Part shown: positions 1-43,656 of the stretch, in pieces | Numbering within the stretch: the first letter of the stretch is position 1 | How the letters are laid out: each line of letters begins with the position of its first letter | DNA from: Octopus vulgaris | Lineage: Eukaryota | Direction of reading: 5' to 3' | Assembly (NCBI GenBank): GCA_951406725.2 | Contig: OX597815.1 | Span: 38,750,001-38,814,000, forward strand | DNA: 64,000 nt | Notes under the pieces: model-generated | What the model saw: only the letters and a program-made list of their open reading frames with translations | Databases searched by the model: none | What the model was told of the DNA's origin: nothing | Program-made: the position numbers and the translations under genes

Positions 1-836
1 AACAAGAAACTACCAGGCCAACATATTAAAGATCAGAAGCAGTCCAACGTGTCGTGTATGCAAGCAACAAAATGAAACCATTGACCATGTGGTCTCCAAG
101 TGCAGTCTTCTAGCGCCTACAGAGTATCTCAACAGGCACGATAGAGCTGCACAATATATTCACTGGGTAATCTGTAAAAACCTGGATTTGCCCCATGAAA
201 AAAACTGGTGGGAACACAAACCACCCCCAGTGCTTGAAAATGACCACATCTCACTCCTCTGGAACTTCACCATTCAAACTGACAGGAAGATAGATGCAAA
301 TAGGCCAGACATCATATTGAAAAACTTCAAACAAAGAACATGCCTCCTCATTGATATGACTGTCCCAATCGATATAAACGTATCTGTTAAGACCTACCAA
401 AAACTGAGCAAATATAAAGATCTTGAAATAGAAATCAGCAAAATGTGGAAGCTGAAGACTAAAACAATACCTGTTGTCATAGGTGCCCTGGGAATGATAG
501 CAAAAGGGGCTGATAGCTACCTAACTCAGATACCAGGAAACCCAAAAATGGCAGAAGTTCAAAAGATAGTGCTCATGGGAACTGCTCATATCCTACGCAA
601 AATACTCTCTATGTAATCTCAAGGTTTAAAACAAACATAATTTTCGGTTTAAAAAAAAAAAAAAAAAAAAAACCTTTTTTTTTTTAGACATTCATTAGTA
701 CAACATCCCCACCCCCCAAATATATGGCACACTAGGCATAACAACAACATGAACTTCCAACCCTGTTGTCTCTTGAGGTCTCTGGGTGAGACTTGGAGCC
801 AACTTGTACAAATATAAAGCAAAAGTCAAACATAGA
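1..836 (+). mobile_element. 3' end of R4/Dong-like RLE non-LTR retrotransposon (family 1), ORF to 616 plus 3' UTR
   Basis: CCHC knuckle (CRVC..ETIDHVVSKC), RHD, RPDI..LID restriction-like endonuclease motif, KY.DL, GALG, GTAHILR; followed by (TAA)n. Confidence 0.9.
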
Positions 837-4744: not shown

Positions 4745-6731
4745 ATCATAAAATTCATAGAGCACTCTATGAATAAATGGCAAACAGTCCTACACCTCCA
4801 AACAAAAGAGGGACTCATGAAAACCAAAGACATCCCCATTAGAAGAGGAATATTCCAGGGAGACACGCTCTCTCCACTCATTTTCTGCTTGGCACTGTCA
4901 CCTCTATCTGATATGCTAAATAGAACTAGATGCGGATATAAATGTTACGGCAAAACGATCAGTCACCTTTTATATATGGATGACCTAAAACTATACGCTG
5001 CAAATGACAAACAGCTGGAAACACTATTAAAGACAGTTCATGGATTTACCAAAGAAATAGATATGAAATTTGGATTAGAAAAATGCGCCAAAGTAACCAT
5101 GAAAAGAGGAAAACTAGTTAAGAGTAACAACATCACACTAGATAAAACCAATGAAATAAAAGAATTAGACCAAAGCCAAACTTACAAATACTTAGGAATC
5201 CATGAACTAGATAAGACACAACACACACAAATGAAAGAGAAAATAAAAAAAGAATATTATAGACGAGTTAGATCAATACTAAACACAGAGCTCAATGCTA
5301 GAAACAAGATAATAGGTATCAACACTTTAGCTGTCCCAGTTATAAGTTACAGCTACAATATCCTTAACTGGACACGAAATGAACTGACCAAAATAGATAG
5401 GAAAACAAGAAAAATAATGACAGGATCTAGGATGCATCACCCAAAATCTGACATAGAAAGACTATATATACAACGTATAGAAGGTGGTAGAGGCCTTATA
5501 CAGCTGGAAAACTACTAGAAAATAACCACCATAGGACTGCAAAAATATCTACTTCAGAAGGAAGGAAAACTGATCCAGATAGCGGCAAAACACGAGCAAA
5601 ACAAAAAACTGTTCTCAGTATTTAAGGAAGCTGACAAATACAAACAAGAAATCATACCACCTAATAAACATAAAGAAGAAGAAGAAGAAGAAGAAGAAGA
5701 AGAAGAAGAAGAAGAAGAAGAAGAAGAAGAAGAAGAAGAAGAAGAAGAAGAAGAAGAAGAAGAAGAAGAAGAAGAAGAAGAAGAAGATGAAGAAACAACA
5801 AAAGCTATAAATCAAATGAAATCCAAACTAAAAATAGAACAGCAACGAACCATGATAAAACGATGGCAAGAAAAGCCCCTTCATGGTAAATACTGCACTA
5901 AACTAAACGCAAAAGAAATAGACAATGAAAAATCCCAGCAATGGTTGAGAAGCTCAGGACTCAAAGCAGAAACAGAGGGATTTTTAATTGCAGCACAAGA
6001 CCAAAAGCCTCCACACCAGAAATTACCAAAAGCATGTAATGAAAAGAAATATTACAAGTAACTGCAGAATATGTGGAGATGGACAAGAAACAATAAATCA
6101 TATTATCTCTAGCTACCCAGTCCTGGCTAAGAAGGAATATATTCACAGACATGACAGAGTTGGAACCTACATACATTGGAAGCTATGCCAACATTATGGA
6201 ATAACAACAGAAAAAAGATGGTATAGGCACACACCAGAAAAGGTCACAGAAAACGAGAAAGCAACCATACTCTGGGATATGCCGATACACACAGATAGAG
6301 AAATTAAGGCCAACAGACCAGATATAGTTGTCAGAGATCATGAAGAGAAAAAATGCTTTCTAATTGATGTATCAATACCAGCTGATGACAACGTGTCTCT
6401 AAAAGAAATGGAGAAACTCTCAAAATACAAAGACCTGGAAATAGAGGTAACTAGAATGTGGAATCTGAAAACAGAAACAATTCCTATCATAGTAGGTGCA
6501 TTAGGCATGATAAAAAAATATTCAGACAAATACATAACAAAAACACCAGGACTTACAAACACATATAACATACAGAAAATTGCACTACTAGGCACTGCAC
6601 ACATCCTACGCAGAACACTTTCCATACAATAACCATCAGAGCATCACAACAAATCACAGCACATACCCAAGGCACACAGAGCTGTGCTTGGTAGTGAAGT
6701 GAAAGCACGCTATAAAAATAAAACTACTGAA
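4745..6731 (+). mobile_element. 5'-truncated R4/Dong-like element (family 2) with RT, zinc knuckle and RLE; pseudogenised
   Basis: RT motifs GIFQGDTLSP, HLLYMDDLKLY, YKYLG; stop at 5516, frameshift near 6003; RPDIVV..D; same 3' end as 1016-1822. Confidence 0.93.
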
Positions 6732-28760: not shown

Positions 28761-31480
28761 TGAAATTGAAACGATTATATGCGTGGTTTGAACGTGTATG
28801 TTCACCACAAGTCATTGTATATAGTGGTTTCCGACAGAAATGACTTGGTACACTTCTCCAGTGTGAAGCGCTTACGACATAGCACGGCATATAGAAACAG
28901 CCAGTGTGTTTCGCGACCCACACTGCCATAAACCCACCCTCCCTCAATTTATACTTCATCTCTAGAACACTGTTTCATCAATTTTAAAATCTGGTCCAGA
29001 ACCACATCACTTTTTAGTTGTGAACCTGGGCCTATCCACATAGCTATTATGATCAACGGTTGTGTCGTGGATCATGCCCTACTTCCCACCACAAAATCAG
29101 ACCATGACCAGTTCCACGAACCATAAATAGAAGAACAGAGCTACGGTTCTAAAACCATGTGCCTTTTCTTTTTCACAGACAGGAGTTAGTTACATCTAGC
29201 CCTGTTACGGGGCTAGAAGAGGCTGCCGTGAACTAATGTCATCCTTATAGCACATCAACTGCGACACATCAACGGAATTATCCCTTTCTCTTGAAAATAA
29301 AAAATCTAGCCACGTTCTTTCCATCTTTAAATTCTTCAATACTATTTCGAGATTCAATGTTTCTACACACTCATAATAATTTGCTTTTGAAAAACATATG
29401 GCGAGCACTGATTGAAAAACTTGATCGAACAAGTATGAGATGAGAGATGTTGCATCTTTGAAAACAGACAAGTTCGACATCCAGCATGGCGATAATGAAG
29501 ATTTCCGGCTGGATAAAATTAGCATAAATTTAAAACTTTAATGCAGTGTAACGTTTTATTATTATTATTAATTTTTGTAATAATTATTTTGAGTCTTGCA
29601 ATTAGCATGCAAAACTACATCGGTGTAGAAAATTTGAAGAAAATCAAACACTGAATAAAAGAGAATAAAATCCAAATTTCTTAGAAATTCATTCGGAAGT
29701 GAACTTACGATTTCCTTTTACAATTCGTGGCTTCCATTTTTCGTGAACTTGAAGAAAATACTCGTTTGTGCATTATAAATCTAAATCTAATTCTCTTGAG
29801 AAATAAGTTTCAAAACTAAATCTTCTTGAATGAGATTTCAGACAATCTAGCTCGCATAGCACGCTAAATCACCTTTCACATTAATATTTGCTAAGTTATC
29901 TCCCACGTAAGTTTTGCTTTCTTCATTTTGCTCATCTTCACAGTATATGTCCAGTTTTATATTATAACTTGCAACATTTGTTCAATAAATTATAGAATGT
30001 TATTACGCTTATGCATTTATTAATTTCCACTTAGGAAATTTAAAATAGACATTATTTACATTTGACGGATATTTGTCCACATTTTGTTTGTTGTTAACAC
30101 AATGTTTCGGCGGCTGATATACCCTCTAACTTTCATCAAGTGCCTTGGGAAAATTTCGAACCTGGGTTCTCATCCCTAAGGTATTTCTCGATATTGTTAT
30201 TATTATTATTAAGGTCACTGCCTGGCATCGAACTCGGTATCTAGGGGTTAATAACCCGCACTTTTAACCCCCTACACCATATGCCCGTGGGAAATTATGG
30301 AGTGAATTTTAGGGCTCATAAATCTAATATTTTTCTATCCTTCCTTAATACCGGTTCCCATATGCTATTCAAATCTGCACTCGGTCTGCTTAGGAGGTTT
30401 TGTGCCCTAGAATATGTGCTGCTTCTTTTAGTTTTCGCATTTTCCAGTGGTGTTCTCTGTCTATATATCCGTCAAATGTAAATAATGTAAAAACTATCTA
30501 TTTGAGTATGGACACTGATATATCAACATAAAAAGGGTTTAGCTATGGGTTCGTCATTATCACCGATAATAGCCAATATATACATGGAATACTTCGCAAA
30601 TTTTGACATTAGGATCAATATCACTAAAACCAACCCTATGCCTCGATATATTGATGACACCTGTATTCTCTGCTGTTAGATCATGTGAACTCAATAAAGC
30701 AATCCATACAGTTCACAATGGAAAAGGAAAAAGAGTATCAACTAGAATTACTGGACATATTAATAACATGCACCAAGTATGGATTCGGGACATCCGTATA
30801 CCGCAAGCCGACCTTCACTGGACGATACCTCAACTTCAATTCCCACCATCCATACAGTGTAAAGAGAGGAATTGCTCAGTACCTCGAGCAAAGAATATAA
30901 GTAGCGATCGAGATACCCACCACGAGAAAATGATCAAGCTCCGTAACAATGTATTAAGCAACAAATACCCCCAAAACATACTATCCACTCCAATTATGAA
31001 GAAAAGAGAGGATGCAAACAATAAATTGTCTACAGTCTATCTACTCTATGTGAAAGTATTCAAGAGTAATACAACACTTCACAAATATCGCCTTCGGCTA
31101 AAACCACCAGTAGAAGAGAATAATGACGAAATACTTCGTGTACCCAATCCCATGCAACTGTGGTAGGTTATACAAAGGTGAAACATGCCGCTCCCTCAAA
31201 ATAAGGGTAGACAAACATCGCAAAGCTAACACAAGAAGATATTGATAAATCGGGTATAGCAGATCATGTATGGAAAAACGGAGACCACCTCCCCCTGTGG
31301 GATGAAGTTAAAATAATAGACAGAAATACGAAACTAAAAGAAGCAGCACATATACTAGGACACAACCTCCTAAGCAGACCGAGTGCAGATATGAATAGCA
31401 TATGGGAACCGGTATTAAGGAAGGATAGGAAAATATTAGATTTATAAGCCCTAAAATTCATTCACGCCAGAATTGCCCAC

Positions 31481-31550
31481 GGGCATATGTGTAGTGGTTA
31501 AGGGCGCTGGCTACTAACCCCAAGATTACGAGTTCGATTCCAGGCAGTGA

Positions 31551-31553
<3 letters not shown>
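31481..31553 (+). promoter_or_regulatory. tRNA-like Pol III A/B-box module in PLE pLTR (also ~37068-37140 +, ~30210-30290 -, ~34950-35030 -)
   Basis: tagtggttaag A-box, ctactaa loop, gagttcgattcc B-box, followed by (AAT)n. Confidence 0.7.
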
Positions 31554-31587
<34 letters not shown>

Positions 31588-31635
31588 GTCGAAAAATATC
31601 TTAGGAATGAAAACCCAGGTTCGAAATTTCCCCAA

Positions 31636-31681
31636 GACACCTGATGAAGGCTGGAGGGTTTATCAGCCGAAACGTTGTCTT
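31636..31681 (+). ncRNA. minimal hammerhead motif in PLE pLTR
   Basis: gacac-CTGATGA-a-ggctg..cagcc-GAAA-cg-TT-gtctt. Confidence 0.75.
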
Positions 31682-32507
31682 AACAACAAACAAGATGATG
31701 ACAAATATCCGTCAATTGTAAATACTACACATAATTCCTCATCACTAAAATATAGGACTGTTGAACAAAAATATTTTTAGTATTTTAAGCTGTTACAAAA
31801 ATTAATGTCCACGAATATTTTGCTCAGAGGATTTATTAGTTTTAAACCAAGTGCGACATACTGGCAGAATCATTAGTGTTGTACAAAGTGCCTTGCGGTA
31901 TTTGCTGCTAACCTGAGTTCCGATCCTTCTGAGGTCAACTTTGCCTTTCATGCCTGAGTGGTCAACGAAATAAAGTACCAATCAAGCACTGGTGTTGATT
32001 TAATCAACTGACACCACCCTGTCAGTCTCTGTGCCACTATTAGAAGCAAATGGTACTTACATTTATCTGTAGGTTAGGAAGAATATCAAACTAGAATTTT
32101 ATGTATGCATGTGTTCTCATGCACTTGTGATGAACAAATAACTGATTTCTCCTGTGTGCAAGATATAAGAGATTCTTTTACATTTTTCCGATATAATTAA
32201 ATCTATGTTTAACTGAGTTGGGAGATGGATGTATTATCGTTAATAAATTCTTTACTTTTTTCCATACACTCAGGATGTTATAGTTGGCAATTCAAAACTT
32301 CATATCGTTTAATCTCTTTATTACTGATATTGTTTTCTTGTAATGAGCTGAACTTTTCACCTTAGTCATTTATCCTTGTTGAAAATAAGATACTTCTTGA
32401 TAAAGAAATTAGTAAAAATCAATATGAAATAATCTTGATAATCACTTAGATCATTTCAATTCGGTAATGATAAACAAGAAATCTAGTTAATAATAACATT
32501 AATTATA

Positions 32508-33444
32508 CGTGGTCTGATCAATAAGTATCTGGAATGTTGCCATTGTAACGACGCTAAAGCACGCAGGATAAAGCCGCTTGGTACATATTGACCTTGAACT
32601 TTGTTGTGCATGCGCACTAAGTTTTAGGATTCCAGCTCACTTCCGCTGTTTAAGGCAGCGCTTGGAAGGGAGGTATGTAGCCTGTGATCGCTGCATTGAC
32701 CATTACAGAGAGAGTTGAGCGGAGAATCTGCATCAAATTTTGCCAAAAGCTTGGCGATACCCGATCAGAGGCCTACGCAAAGTTTTCAAAAAGTTTTCAT
32801 CTTTCTCAAAACAATGAAGGAGATCTTGTACAACTGAAACCCGAGTGTCATTTTGGTCAGCTGAAAGTAATTTTGCCACAAACTTGGCAGACACGCGTCT
32901 CATACCCAAATCTTCAGTGATAATGGACTGAACTGAACTGTAACTAATCTGCACATTCTCTAATAACTCACGGATGGGGATTCGACGATTTCCCCTCATA
33001 GCTGCACGCACATCTGCGATGCTTTTCCTCAGCTCTGCTGGTTGCGCGTCTCCTAGAACGTTCGTCAATATCGACATTTTTTCATCTTGGAAGTGTCTGA
33101 ACCACTCGTACACTTGTGTGCAGCTCGTGCACTCCTCTCCATACACTTTCTGCAACATTCTGTAGGCCTTTGGGCAAGTATCGCCATGACAACTTCCTTT
33201 GCCATGGTCAATGAGATGATCACACTCTACACACCTTCCTTTAGCTGCAAAATGTCGATATTGACGAACGTTCTGAGAGAGCCGCAACCAAGTACTGATG
33301 TAAACAGCGGAAGTGAGCTAAAACGTTAAACCTTAGTGCGCATGCACATCAGTATTTAGCTCAATCTTTGCCAAGTGGCTTTACTCTGCGTGCTTTAGCT
33401 TCGTTACTATGGCAACAATCCGGATACTTATTGATTAGACCTCG
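32508..33444 (-). mobile_element. rearranged mariner made of two inward-facing 5' ends
   Basis: TIR cgtggtctgatcaataagtatc / gatacttattgattagacctcg, TA TSD; transposase N-terminus (ICIKFCQKLG; VYEWF..F; MRRVSAKFV.KLL) from both ends. Confidence 0.85.
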
Positions 33445-33664
33445 TAATGTCAAGTTTAGTGCAGACGAACTACTTCACCACTCCATCTTTACTTTACAGA
33501 CATTTATTTAAAACCCCGTTGTCCATGTATTTTGACCTATGTATGACTTTAAACTGCACTAGATGGTGGAACCTTGGCTCGGAAGTTTCAGGTTTTTCAG
33601 AAGTGTGGAACCACCTCTCAACCATTATTGTTCCTAGATCTGCTCTGACCCGAAGTGATATCAC

Positions 33665-34714: not shown

Positions 34715-37328
34715 TTCACATTATTTACATTATTTACATTTCACTGATATTTATCCTCATCTTGTTTGTTGTTAACACAACGCCTCGCTGATATACCCTC
34801 CAGCCTTCATCAGGTGCCTTGGGGAAATTTCGACCCTGGGTTCTCATTCCTAAGGTATATTTCGATATTAGTATTATTATTATTAATATTTTTTATTATT
34901 ATTATTATCATTATTATTATTATTATTATTATTATAATCATCATTATTCAGGTCCCTGCCTGGAATCGAACTTGGAACCTTAAGGTTAGTAGCTCGCGCT
35001 CTTAACTACTGCACCATATGCGCGTGGGCAATTCTGGAGTGAATGAATTTTAGGGCTTATAAATCTAATATTTTCCTATCCTTTCTTAATACCGGTTCAC
35101 ATATGCTACTCATATCTGCACTCAGTCTGCTTAGGAGGTTGTTGTGTCTTAGCATTTGTGCTGCTTCTTTTAGTTTTCGTTTTTTCCAGTAGTGCTCTCT
35201 GGCTATTATTTTAACTTCATCCACAGGGGTAGGTGGTCTCCAGTTTTCCATACATGATCTGCTATACCCGATTTATCAATATCTTCTTGTGTCACAGCTT
35301 TGCGATGTTCGTCTACTCTTATTTTGAGGGGACGGCATGTTTCACCTTTGTATAACCTACCACAGCTGCATGGAATGGAATACACGCAGTCTTTGGTCAT
35401 ATTCTCTTCTACTGGTGGAAATGCTACAGTGATGATACTACAGTGTGATGAACAAGTCTAACTACTCTAAAAAATCGGCAAATCCTATAAGTGATGGTAA
35501 CTACAGAAAAGAAAAGAAAAGAAAGACCCACCTTTGAAAACAGAGAAAGTTGTCACAATCCTTGATCAAGAACAATGAAGTACAGGCAACTGACTCAACA
35601 CTACAGTAAACTACCACACATGTACAGTCTTCCTAAGATTCACAAGGGTGCTATTCCATTAAGACCTATAGTGAGCTGTAGTGGTTCAGCATGTCATCCA
35701 CTGAGCCGCTTCCTTGTGGATATAATCAGTCCATTAGCAGGAAAATCAACATCGTACGTGAAGAATTCCACCCACTTCACAGAATTGATCAAGAGTACAC
35801 CCATTGAATTCAACCAGATGGAGAGTCTAGATGTGATAAGTCAGTTCACCAAAGTCCCAACTGGTGAAGCACTATCTGTGATTCAAGAAAAAGTAGTGAG
35901 AGACACCCATCTAAAAGAACTCACTATTATACCAATAAGAAACTTGATGGAAATGTTGACCTTCTGTGTAGGAACTACTTACTGCAGTATGGACACTGAT
36001 ATATATCGGCATAAAGAGGGTTTGGCAATGGGTTTGCCATTATCACTGATACTAGCCAATATATAGATGGAATACTTAGAGAATTTTGGCTTTAGAATCA
36101 ACACAAACTAAAATCAGACCTATGGCTGTGATATGTTGACGATACCTTTATACTCTGGCCCCACCAGGAAGATGTCCAAGTGCTGTTAGATCATGTGAAC
36201 TCAATAAAGCAATTCATACAGTTCACAATGGAAAAGGAAAATATAATCAGCTAGCATGGACGTACTAATAACGTACTAATGGACGTACTAATAACACGCA
36301 CCAAATATGGATTCAGGACATCCGTATACCGCAAGCTGAACCTCACTGGATACCTCAACTTCAATTCCCACCATCAATACAGTGTAAAGAGAGGAATTGC
36401 TCAGTGCCTAAAATATCGTGCAAAGAATATAAGTAGCGATCATGATACATACCACGAAGACATGATCAAGCTCAGTAACAATGTATTAAACAACGACTAC
36501 CCCAAAAACATAATATCTACTCCAATTATGAAGAAAAGAAAGGATGAAACCAACAAATTGTCTACAGTCTGTCTACCCTATGTCAAAGTCGTCTCCGAAA
36601 ATATACAAAAGATATGCAGCATAGGACAGTATTGAAGAGTAATACAACAATTCGCAAATATCTCCTTCGAGTAAAACCACCAATAAAAGAGAATATGACC
36701 AAAGACTGCGTGTACTCCATTCCATGCAGTTGTGGCAGGTTATACAAAGATGAAATATGCCGCCCCCTCAGAATTAGGGTAGAGGAACATCGTAAAACTA
36801 TGACACGAGGAGATATTGATAAATGGAGTATAGCTGATCATGTATGGAAAAATGGAGACCACTGCCCCTGTGAGTTGAAGTTAAAATAATAGGCAGAAAA
36901 CACCACTGGAAAATACGAAAATCAGAAGAAATAGCACATATCCTAGGACACAACAACCTCCTAAGCAGAGCGAGTGCAGGTATGAATAGCATATGGGAAC
37001 CGGTATTAAGGAAGGAAAGGAAAATATTAGATTGTAAGCCCTAAAATTCACTCCAGAACTGATCGCAGGCATATGGCGTAGTGGTTAAGGGCGCTGGCTA
37101 CTAACCTCAAGATTCTGAGTTCGGTTCCAAGTAATGATCTTAATAATAATAATGATAATAATAACCTTAGGAATAAGAACCAAGGTTCGCAATTTCACTA
37201 AGACACCTGAAGAAGGCTGGCGGATATATCAGCCGAAACGTTGTGTTAACAACAAACAAGATGAGGACAAATATCCGTCAACTGTAAACAATGTACATAA
37301 TTCCTCATCTCTTAGATATAGAACTGTA
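34715..37328 (+). mobile_element. Penelope-like element (RT + GIY-YIG, pseudogenised) with inverted 5' copy of its 3' end
   Basis: LPKIHK..PLRPIVS, GLAMG.PLS..LANI, YVDDTF, VYSIPCSCGRLY; 34715-35420 is the reverse complement of ~36680-37300. Confidence 0.93.
37202..37247 (+). ncRNA. minimal hammerhead motif in PLE pLTR
   Basis: gacac-CTGAAGA-a-ggctgg..tcagcc-GAAA-cg-TT-gtgtt. Confidence 0.8.
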
Positions 37329-37494
37329 TTAACTTTTTTCATTGTCAATCCATATCACTGGGAATTTATTCTAACCAGCCTTTCTTTTGTTTTTGTATTT
37401 TATTCAGCTTCCGCTAATTATTGCAATATCTTTAATCATTTATAATTCATGTTGATATCTCACTTGTTTTACTTTGATCTCCCTTCCATATTTC

Positions 37495-37949: not shown

Positions 37950-38169
37950 TGGCAGAAACGTTTGCACGCCGGGCGAAATGCGTAGCCGTATTTCGTCTGC
38001 CGTTACATTCTGAGTTCAAATTCCGCCTAGGTTGACTTTGCCTTTCATCCTTTCGGGGTCGATAAATTAAGTACCAGTTACGCACTGGGGTCGATATAAT
38101 CGACTTAATTCGTTTGTCTGTCCTTGTTTGTCCTTTCTGTGTTTAGCCCCTTGTGGGTAGTAAAGAAAT
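37950..38169 (+). mobile_element. tRNA-derived SINE inserted in a (GAT)n tract
   Basis: Near-identical to 8740-8957; gatgatcatgg on both flanks. Confidence 0.9.
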
Positions 38170-43237: not shown

Positions 43238-43656
43238 TTTTATTTGTTTATTGCCCACAAGGGGCTAAACATAGAGGGAACAAACAGGGATAAACAAAGG
43301 GATTAAGTCGATTACATCGACCCCAGTGCATAACTGGTACTTAATTTATCGATCCTGAAAGGATGAAAGGCAAAGTCGACCTCGTCAGAATTTGAAATCA
43401 GAACGTAACGGCAGACGAAATACCTATTTCTTTACTACCCACAAGGGGCTAAACACAGAGGGAACAAACAAAGACAGACAAACGGATTAATTCGATTACA
43501 TCGACCCCACTGCGTAACTGGTACTTAATTTATCGACCCCGAAAGGATGAAAGGCAAAGTCGACCTCGGTGGAATTTAAACTCACAACGTAACGGCAGAC
43601 GAAATACGGCTACGCATTTCGCCCGGCGTGCTAACGTGTCTGCCAGCTCGCCGCCT
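43238..43656 (-). mobile_element. two tandem copies of the tRNA-derived SINE
   Basis: 43425-43656 full length, 43238-43424 lacks the head; match to 8729-8957. Confidence 0.9.

Follow-up and report, generated by a model that had tools for sequence, protein, structure and literature searches.

The terminal repeat of a Penelope-like element (PLE) in Octopus vulgaris carries a tRNA-Arg-like head in promoter position, upstream of a single ORF coding for a reverse transcriptase (RT) and a GIY-YIG endonuclease. Copies that reach the head mostly begin there, and the sense strand of the entire unit is free of TTTT; these sequence features make it on balance probable that RNA polymerase III (Pol III), with the head as promoter, transcribes the whole coding unit. 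The element is described from a window of 64,000 nt (contig OX597815.1, positions 38,750,001 to 38,814,000) and from its copies in genome G000 (2.8 Gb).

Two insertions share a tRNA-headed terminal repeat

Two insertions account for the four terminal-repeat copies in the window, and each is composed of a 5'-truncated sense copy and an inverted arm (Table 1). The four copies align across head, (AAT)n tract, linker, hammerhead, and tail with 75% mean column identity, confirming the preliminary description, which had placed a module of tRNA-like head, (AAT)n, and hammerhead in each of them; its coordinates also hold, including a predicted ribozyme cut after 31676. A 25-nt fragment of the element's own tail lies between inverted arm and sense copy of the first insertion, at 30465-30489, and is likely a template-switch scar.

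Table 1. Features of the two insertions, in window positions
Feature	Position	Strand	Basis or remark
Insertion 1, sense copy	30486-31761	+	Alignment
Insertion 1, inverted arm: endonuclease end, head, hammerhead, short tail	30049..30464	-	Alignment
Insertion 2, sense copy: truncated ORF and full terminal repeat	35435..37334	+	Alignment
Insertion 2, inverted arm	34720..35418	-	Alignment
PLE ORF, 5'-truncated and frameshifted: C-terminal part of RT and GIY-YIG endonuclease; stop TAA 31445-31447	30486..31447	+	
Spacer, ORF stop to inferred RNA start	31448..31474	+	
Inferred RNA 5' end (+1 = 31475; second peak 31481) with 10-nt palindrome	31475..31484	+	5'-end counts
tRNA-Arg-like head	31481..31554	+	Alignment to tRNA loci
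A box	31488-31498	+	1-nt deletion in insertion 1 sense copy
B box	31530-31541	+	
(AAT)n tract	31555..31587	+	Tract proper 31555-31586; length differs among copies
Linker with predicted ORF start codon ATG 31607-31609	31588..31635	+	Family ORF; relative P0003 aligns throughout
Minimal type I hammerhead within ORF	31636..31681	+	Predicted cut after 31676; structure by hand
Tail = ORF codons about 24-52, with stem-loop	31677..31761	+	Two 3'-end clusters about 30 nt apart

The module is abundant and, as had been proposed from the window, belongs to the element. Exact searches of G000 give 2,386 matches for a 24-nt pattern from the head and 6,036 for a 25-nt pattern from the hammerhead, compared with 0 for either reversed control, and because copies differ by about 5% at non-CpG positions, the true copy numbers are presumably several-fold above these exact matches. 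In 29 of 30 loci, among them 27 of the 28 outside the window, the endonuclease end is followed by the head, and the order of the unit is ORF stop, tRNA-Arg-like head, (AAT)n, ORF start codon, hammerhead, and tail.

Remnants of other mobile elements occur in the same window. Two non-LTR retrotransposon remnants, which we take to be R4/Dong-like, lie at 1045-1725 and 4751-6632 (RVT_1 E 1.2e-15), flanked by long (AAT)n tracts, and a mariner-like remnant at 32506-33446 has 89-nt inverted ends enclosing a Mos1-type HTH match. Another short repeat, which is very common, occupies 31880-32020, 37955-38160, and 43241-43607, the last of these being a 184-nt tandem dimer, and is also inserted within element copies L021 and L160.

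The element is of Penelope/Poseidon type

The majority sequence of the family, derived from the loci retrieved, spans 2,673 nt and contains one ORF of 835 aa, organized as an RT followed by a C-terminal GIY-YIG domain with CCHH (endonuclease motif recognized by eye). The ORF has 2,980 homologues, and its RVT_1 match (E 2.7e-6) falls just under the curated cut-off. Inspection by eye finds no Zn finger between the RT and the endonuclease, a linker feature that the available text of PMC8557442 gives as present in Neptune/Nematis and absent from the Penelope/Poseidon layout. The family also has inverted 5' arms and bimodal 3' ends, which are Penelope/Poseidon traits (pseudo-LTR, optional 30-40 nt tail), and a partial-tandem pseudo-LTR is found in loci L153 and L158. 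Judged by sequence, the element is a Penelope/Poseidon-type PLE with thousands of copies in G000.

Because the ORF starts in the linker (31607), the hammerhead and tail constitute its first ~50 codons, and in near-complete loci the tail continues into the ORF. An 847-aa relative (P0003, 56% identity), from a set of relatives that are 55-68% identical (P0001-P0007), has an N-terminus that translates the same hammerhead-encoded peptide, and the ribozyme thus lies inside the ORF in the P0003 lineage too. The longest genomic open frame observed is 569 aa, so the family appears dead or nearly so. Lower-identity protein matches in G000 are decayed members of this family, and no relatives of the element were found in the viral contigs searched. 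A second, very young PLE family, used below as a control, is present at L427:1509-3767 (G000:C4:153218200-153223700) and in L428-L432; it has near-identical open frames of 753-764 aa across many chromosomes, occurs as an inverted pair in L430, and has a Zn-finger-like linker that by eye is Neptune-type.

The head is tRNA-like in sequence and accompanied by a minimal hammerhead

The three best alignments of the head among 30 genomic tRNA loci are all to tRNA-Arg (z 7.2-8.2), with tRNA-Ala next (z 6.5), a modest margin. The head folds no better than shuffled sequences (z +1.3 and +1.7) and is thus tRNA-like only in sequence. ARAGORN and Rfam (gathering and E-value) detect neither head nor hammerhead, single-strand folding yields neither a cloverleaf nor a hammerhead fold, and a dimer co-fold does not give the active form. 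Assigned by hand, the hammerhead has a 5-bp stem I, a 6-bp stem II, and a palindromic stem III, and carries damage in all but one of the four copies in the window (a stem I mismatch at 31679 and core changes in both inverted arms). It fits the minimal hammerheads described in PMC4209133, single examples of which, according to the available part of that source, do not cleave in vitro; the role of the PLE hammerhead is treated as still open there and in the accessible text of PMC11167929.

In 66 copies sampled without anchoring on the head, non-CpG substitutions amount to 6.0% in the A box, 4.8% in the B box, and 5.1% in the remainder of the head. The preliminary description had taken boxes no better conserved than their surroundings, along with a lack of transcripts starting at the head, as the mark of a passive passenger SINE. 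The first half of this is indeed what is seen, but the copies are dead and decay neutrally, so the comparison has little power and a flat result is expected either way.

Copies begin at the head

Two samples of copies locate the 5' ends. The first comprises the first 90 listed of the 2,386 head-pattern matches, all on contig C1 and each extended upstream. The 5' end falls at -1..+8 (+1 = 31475) in 67 of these 90 copies, with peaks at +1 and at +7, the latter (22/90) corresponding to tRNA position 1; the remaining 23 extend further and are scattered over 690 nt. The 5'-end rate is thus ~14% per nt at the head start versus 0.22% per nt upstream, a difference of ~60-fold. Some loci share flanks (L042-L044, L056/L058, and L322/L323), and collapsing them leaves 65 of 86 at the head start.

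As anchoring on the head forbids ends downstream of +8, the second sample is anchored on the hammerhead and consists of 70 loci from the first 76 listed of 6,036. Truncation within the short unit is common, with 53 of the 70 copies falling short of the head start: 19 end in the linker or hammerhead, 17 end in (AAT)n or show no head within 850 nt, and 17 end inside the head. The head start is nonetheless the end point for 12 of the 17 copies that reach it, 5 ending upstream, and its rate is ~13-fold higher than the truncation rate of ~1% per nt inside the head. Genome-wide, 1,899 start-motif matches in G000 include 470 at an ORF-side junction and 729 at a fold-back junction, perfect palindromes being counted twice.

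The fold-back junctions reflect the 10-nt palindrome at the head start, which is the site of 5' inversions in many short copies, and inversion at this point implies a cDNA end at about +1. L146 and L160, which lie 1 Mb apart on G000:C3, have the same junction, in which an ORF position ~226 nt beyond the tail directly abuts the head start (+1); such joints are proposed to be either template switches or a small deleted derivative. Jumps from nearby ORF positions back into the repeat are also seen in L142, L147, L148, L152, L162, and L169.

The pile-up points to an RNA 5' end at the head, which is a part of the proposal of a Pol III RNA made from the head that stands. A different explanation is that the head is a passively captured fragment of a tRNA or SINE, with the pile-up arising either from RT stalling and snap-back at the palindrome or from a Pol II transcript being cut, in RNase P-like fashion, at position 1 of the tRNA. 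The palindrome does lie exactly at +1..+10, at least 21 of the 67 copies ending at the head start have a fold-back signature, the +7 peak coincides with tRNA position 1, and the A and B boxes are not preferentially conserved. However, many ends at +1..+7 lack a fold-back, the 4-bp stem is weak, the head has no cloverleaf fold, and a passive head offers no cause for the avoidance of T-runs described below; we regard this explanation as improbable.

Insertions run past the ribozyme site, and short copies share variants with ORF-linked ones

At the 3' end, 69 of 70 insertions run at least 27 nt beyond the predicted hammerhead cut and none cluster at it; instead, 36 copies end +43..60 past the cut and 30 copies +73..91, giving two clusters. 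The accessible part of PMC11167929 traces a two-site tail in anole Poseidon to two internal RT start sites, and finds that cleavage is not required for insertion and that uncut RNA is the main substrate. The preliminary description had envisaged a ~190-nt Pol III RNA with its 3' end set by ribozyme cleavage, and it is this ribozyme-set end that does not hold for insertions. As a functional or mobile product such an RNA is very improbable: the family has both the head and the hammerhead as fixed parts, and it could arise as a 5' cleavage fragment, but the insertion ends refute it for insertions, its hammerhead belongs to a class uncleaved in vitro when single (PMC4209133), and anole Poseidon inserts without need of cleavage (PMC11167929). 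A cleaved 190-nt RNA would moreover be missing the tail, the apparent RT start.

Among copies reaching the head, the short head-to-tail type is the most frequent, in 3:1 excess over ORF-linked ones, and to this extent the notion of a PLE-mobilized SINE is borne out. An independent SINE lineage is not, since the same variants are common to short and ORF-linked copies. Non-CpG variants at +70, +181, and +250 and a 9-nt tail duplication have similar frequencies in 56 ORF-linked and 128 short copies (for +70, 17/56 and 44/128), and no diagnostic site separates the two sets; at +266 the difference is weak (P 0.02), and the variant there is linked to tail length. Capture of a separate donor SINE, also suggested previously, finds no counterpart in the 90 head-anchored loci: linker, hammerhead, or tail follows the head in 76, the other 14 stop in or just after the head or (AAT)n, and no SINE with the same head and a different body is among them, and a more diverged donor may exist.

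Given these shared variants, the short form is best read as a solo copy of the terminal repeat, derived from the same masters as the ORF-linked copies. Like a SINE it has a fixed 5' end at a tRNA-related head containing A and B boxes, and its 3' end is PLE tail, made of ORF codons, and neither a LINE-derived 3' end nor an A-rich tail. Assignment to the non-LTR retrozymes was rejected, as a direct repeat of hammerhead and tail, the sign of a head-to-tail array, occurs in only 1 of 30 head-anchored loci (L040).

The coding unit is depleted of T-runs

Four Ts end Pol III transcription in animals, and the sense strand of the 2,673-nt majority unit has 0 TTTT compared with 30 runs of four or more As. 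Among synonymous sites where a T would complete TTTT, 0 of 16 have T, with 5.3 expected (P 0.001); when CpG-context sites are removed, 4.6 are expected (P 0.003). Synonymous codon permutation predicts 2.9 TTTT (P 0.026) and third-position redraw predicts 5.1 (P 0.003), all of these tests being made on one family majority sequence with small expected counts. Markov models of order 0, 1, and 2 predict 4.8, 2.5, and 1.5 (P 0.006, 0.09, and 0.23, respectively), the order-1 and order-2 nulls, which are not significant, both absorbing the T-run depletion itself. The absence is not a consensus artefact, since T4 is found in at most 11% of copies at each of the 13 T3 sites.

Control ORFs were RT-motif open frames of at least 380 aa among 80 metagenome loci, from elements that are 27-45% identical. 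T4 is present in 30 of 30 control PLE ORFs, and controls use 634 of 1,085 T4 chances, versus 538 expected, in a set of 33 ORFs that includes three frames dropped from the 30-ORF count; an A and B box pair is found near 0 of these 33. The second PLE family in G000, with equal T content, has 8 T4 in 753 codons. The observed/expected ratio for TTT is 0.50 in the octopus family, versus a control minimum of 0.73 and median of 1.36 (n=31). G4 runs are absent too (0 of 13 chances, with 2.4 expected), and G-run depletion is common in the controls.

These counts bear on a further explanation, that Pol III makes only a short RNA, giving a PLE-mobilized, SINE-like solo repeat, while Pol II makes the ORF mRNA, for which the Pol II promoter of Drosophila virilis Penelope is a model in the available text of PMC2377424, the T-run depletion being otherwise caused. 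This would account for the 5' pile-up and the excess of short copies and requires no uncapped coding RNA, and only one of 30 loci with an ORF 5' end (L145) starts at the head start, most starting in the hammerhead or tail. However, it leaves the family-specific loss of TTTT over the whole ORF unexplained, a short transcript from the upstream repeat meets no terminator before the ORF end, and no variant separates short from ORF-linked copies. We consider it a serious candidate that is nonetheless rather unlikely.

A model for transcription and mobility

The simplest account of both the 5' pile-up and the absence of TTTT would be a head acting as a Pol III promoter, together with selection for Pol III readability of the entire unit. 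The head is fixed in the family and lies ~140 nt upstream of the ORF start codon (+143). Transcription would start at the equivalents of 31475 or 31481, and with no terminator in the unit, RNA begun in the upstream repeat would extend over the ORF and on through the downstream repeat, as far as the first T-run in the flank. Reverse transcription would then initiate at an internal site of the tail, 50-60 or 80-90 nt beyond the predicted hammerhead cut, in line with the internal start in the tail shown in vitro for anole Poseidon (PMC11167929, as far as its text is available). Initiation in the tail nearest the RNA 5' end would give short copies of 270-300 nt from head to tail, often with a fold-back inversion at the 5' palindrome; keeping promoter and tail, these would be de facto SINEs. 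Initiation in the downstream tail would give truncated, ORF-bearing copies. The hammerhead may be active only with a second copy, so that it would cut two-repeat RNAs only; the cut at +212 would split the start codon from the rest of the ORF, and, speculatively, ligation into a circle of a unit cut in both repeats would make the ORF complete again. An internal promoter and start site at the same repeat position is reported for D. virilis Penelope in the accessible part of PMC2377424.

A fuller scenario, to which we give about an even chance from sequence evidence, is that an autonomous coding retrotransposon swapped its Pol II promoter for a tRNA-derived one, purged 2.7 kb of terminators, and came to have its RT-endonuclease mRNA made by Pol III, giving rise to thousands of Penelope-mobilized, SINE-like copies. 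Pol III normally makes short non-coding RNAs, and its transcripts are uncapped; translation of an uncapped RNA is the weak step of this reading. The processivity of Pol III has also been argued, in the available text of PMC10886601, to limit such elements to about 1.3 kb. No sequencing run recorded as RNA contains the window stretch. In organisms B, C, and E, contigs of presumed RNA runs cover the element and span the endonuclease-head junction; starts, ends, strand, and level are not readable from them, and there is no recurring splice-like joint among the contig matches listed.

Relationship to known elements

The octopus element resembles Penelope/Poseidon PLEs, as described in the available text of PMC2377424, PMC11167929, and PMC8557442, in having a single ORF for RT and GIY-YIG, a pseudo-LTR, a hammerhead over the ORF start, 3' ends ~30 nt apart, inverted 5' arms, and a start inside the repeat. 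It differs from what those sources describe in that a tRNA-derived A/B-box head occupies the promoter position, where theirs is TATA-less and DPE-type, and in a sense strand without TTTT; no intron is seen. PMC13282606, in its accessible portion, has no description of a tRNA-headed PLE structure, and PMC5786205, likewise in part, mentions a tRNA-like sequence in one RTE LINE group with no mechanism given. A LINE driven by Pol III is not mentioned in the accessible portions of PMC13343379 and PMC6740152.

A small-RNA-derived Pol III promoter inside a retroelement terminal repeat is shared with Cassandra, Helenus, and Ajax (TRIMp3; PMC10886601, accessible text), which are non-coding LTR elements of 311-1263 bp, whereas the octopus element is a coding, autonomous 2.7-kb PLE. 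Identity with TRIMp3 was rejected on these grounds, as a non-coding LTR structure with PBS and PPT is not found and the architecture is that of a coding PLE. The SINE-like schistosome elements Sm-alpha and Sj-alpha are likewise tRNA-related short repeats with a hammerhead, to which the available text of PMC2770079 links no autonomous partner; the octopus short form, in contrast, consists of its own PLE's terminal repeat and initial 50 codons. Metazoan non-LTR retrozymes are also short, hammerhead-bearing, non-coding units from PLE repeats (PMC7229834 and bioRxiv 10.64898/2026.07.22.740005, both in their accessible parts), but they are tandem arrays by definition, whereas the octopus copies are mostly single, with inverted arms and a tRNA head; the accessible text of the bioRxiv report has 0 occurrences of tRNA or Pol III.

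The short form is like tRNA-derived SINEs in its tRNA head, fixed 5' end, length of about 300 nt, and thousands of copies, and unlike them in deriving its body and 3' end from a PLE instead of a LINE. Three families of octopus tRNA-derived SINEs were reportedly described by Ohshima and Okada in 1994, and the short form may be one of them. In the literature searched, neither a PLE with a tRNA-derived promoter nor a Pol III-transcribed autonomous retroelement was found.

Pol III-driven retroelements are treated as short and non-coding, with autonomous partners expected to need Pol II, in the accessible parts of PMC10886601 and PMC5786205, and the former considers a 2.7-kb coding element unlikely for Pol III. 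If the octopus element is transcribed as proposed here, its natural ORF of 835 codons, driven by a tRNA promoter, would be an exception to this rule. Such a case would call for an explanation of translation from an uncapped RNA and would give the PLE hammerhead a concrete job; it would also provide a path by which SINE-like elements come to be mobilized by a Penelope enzyme.
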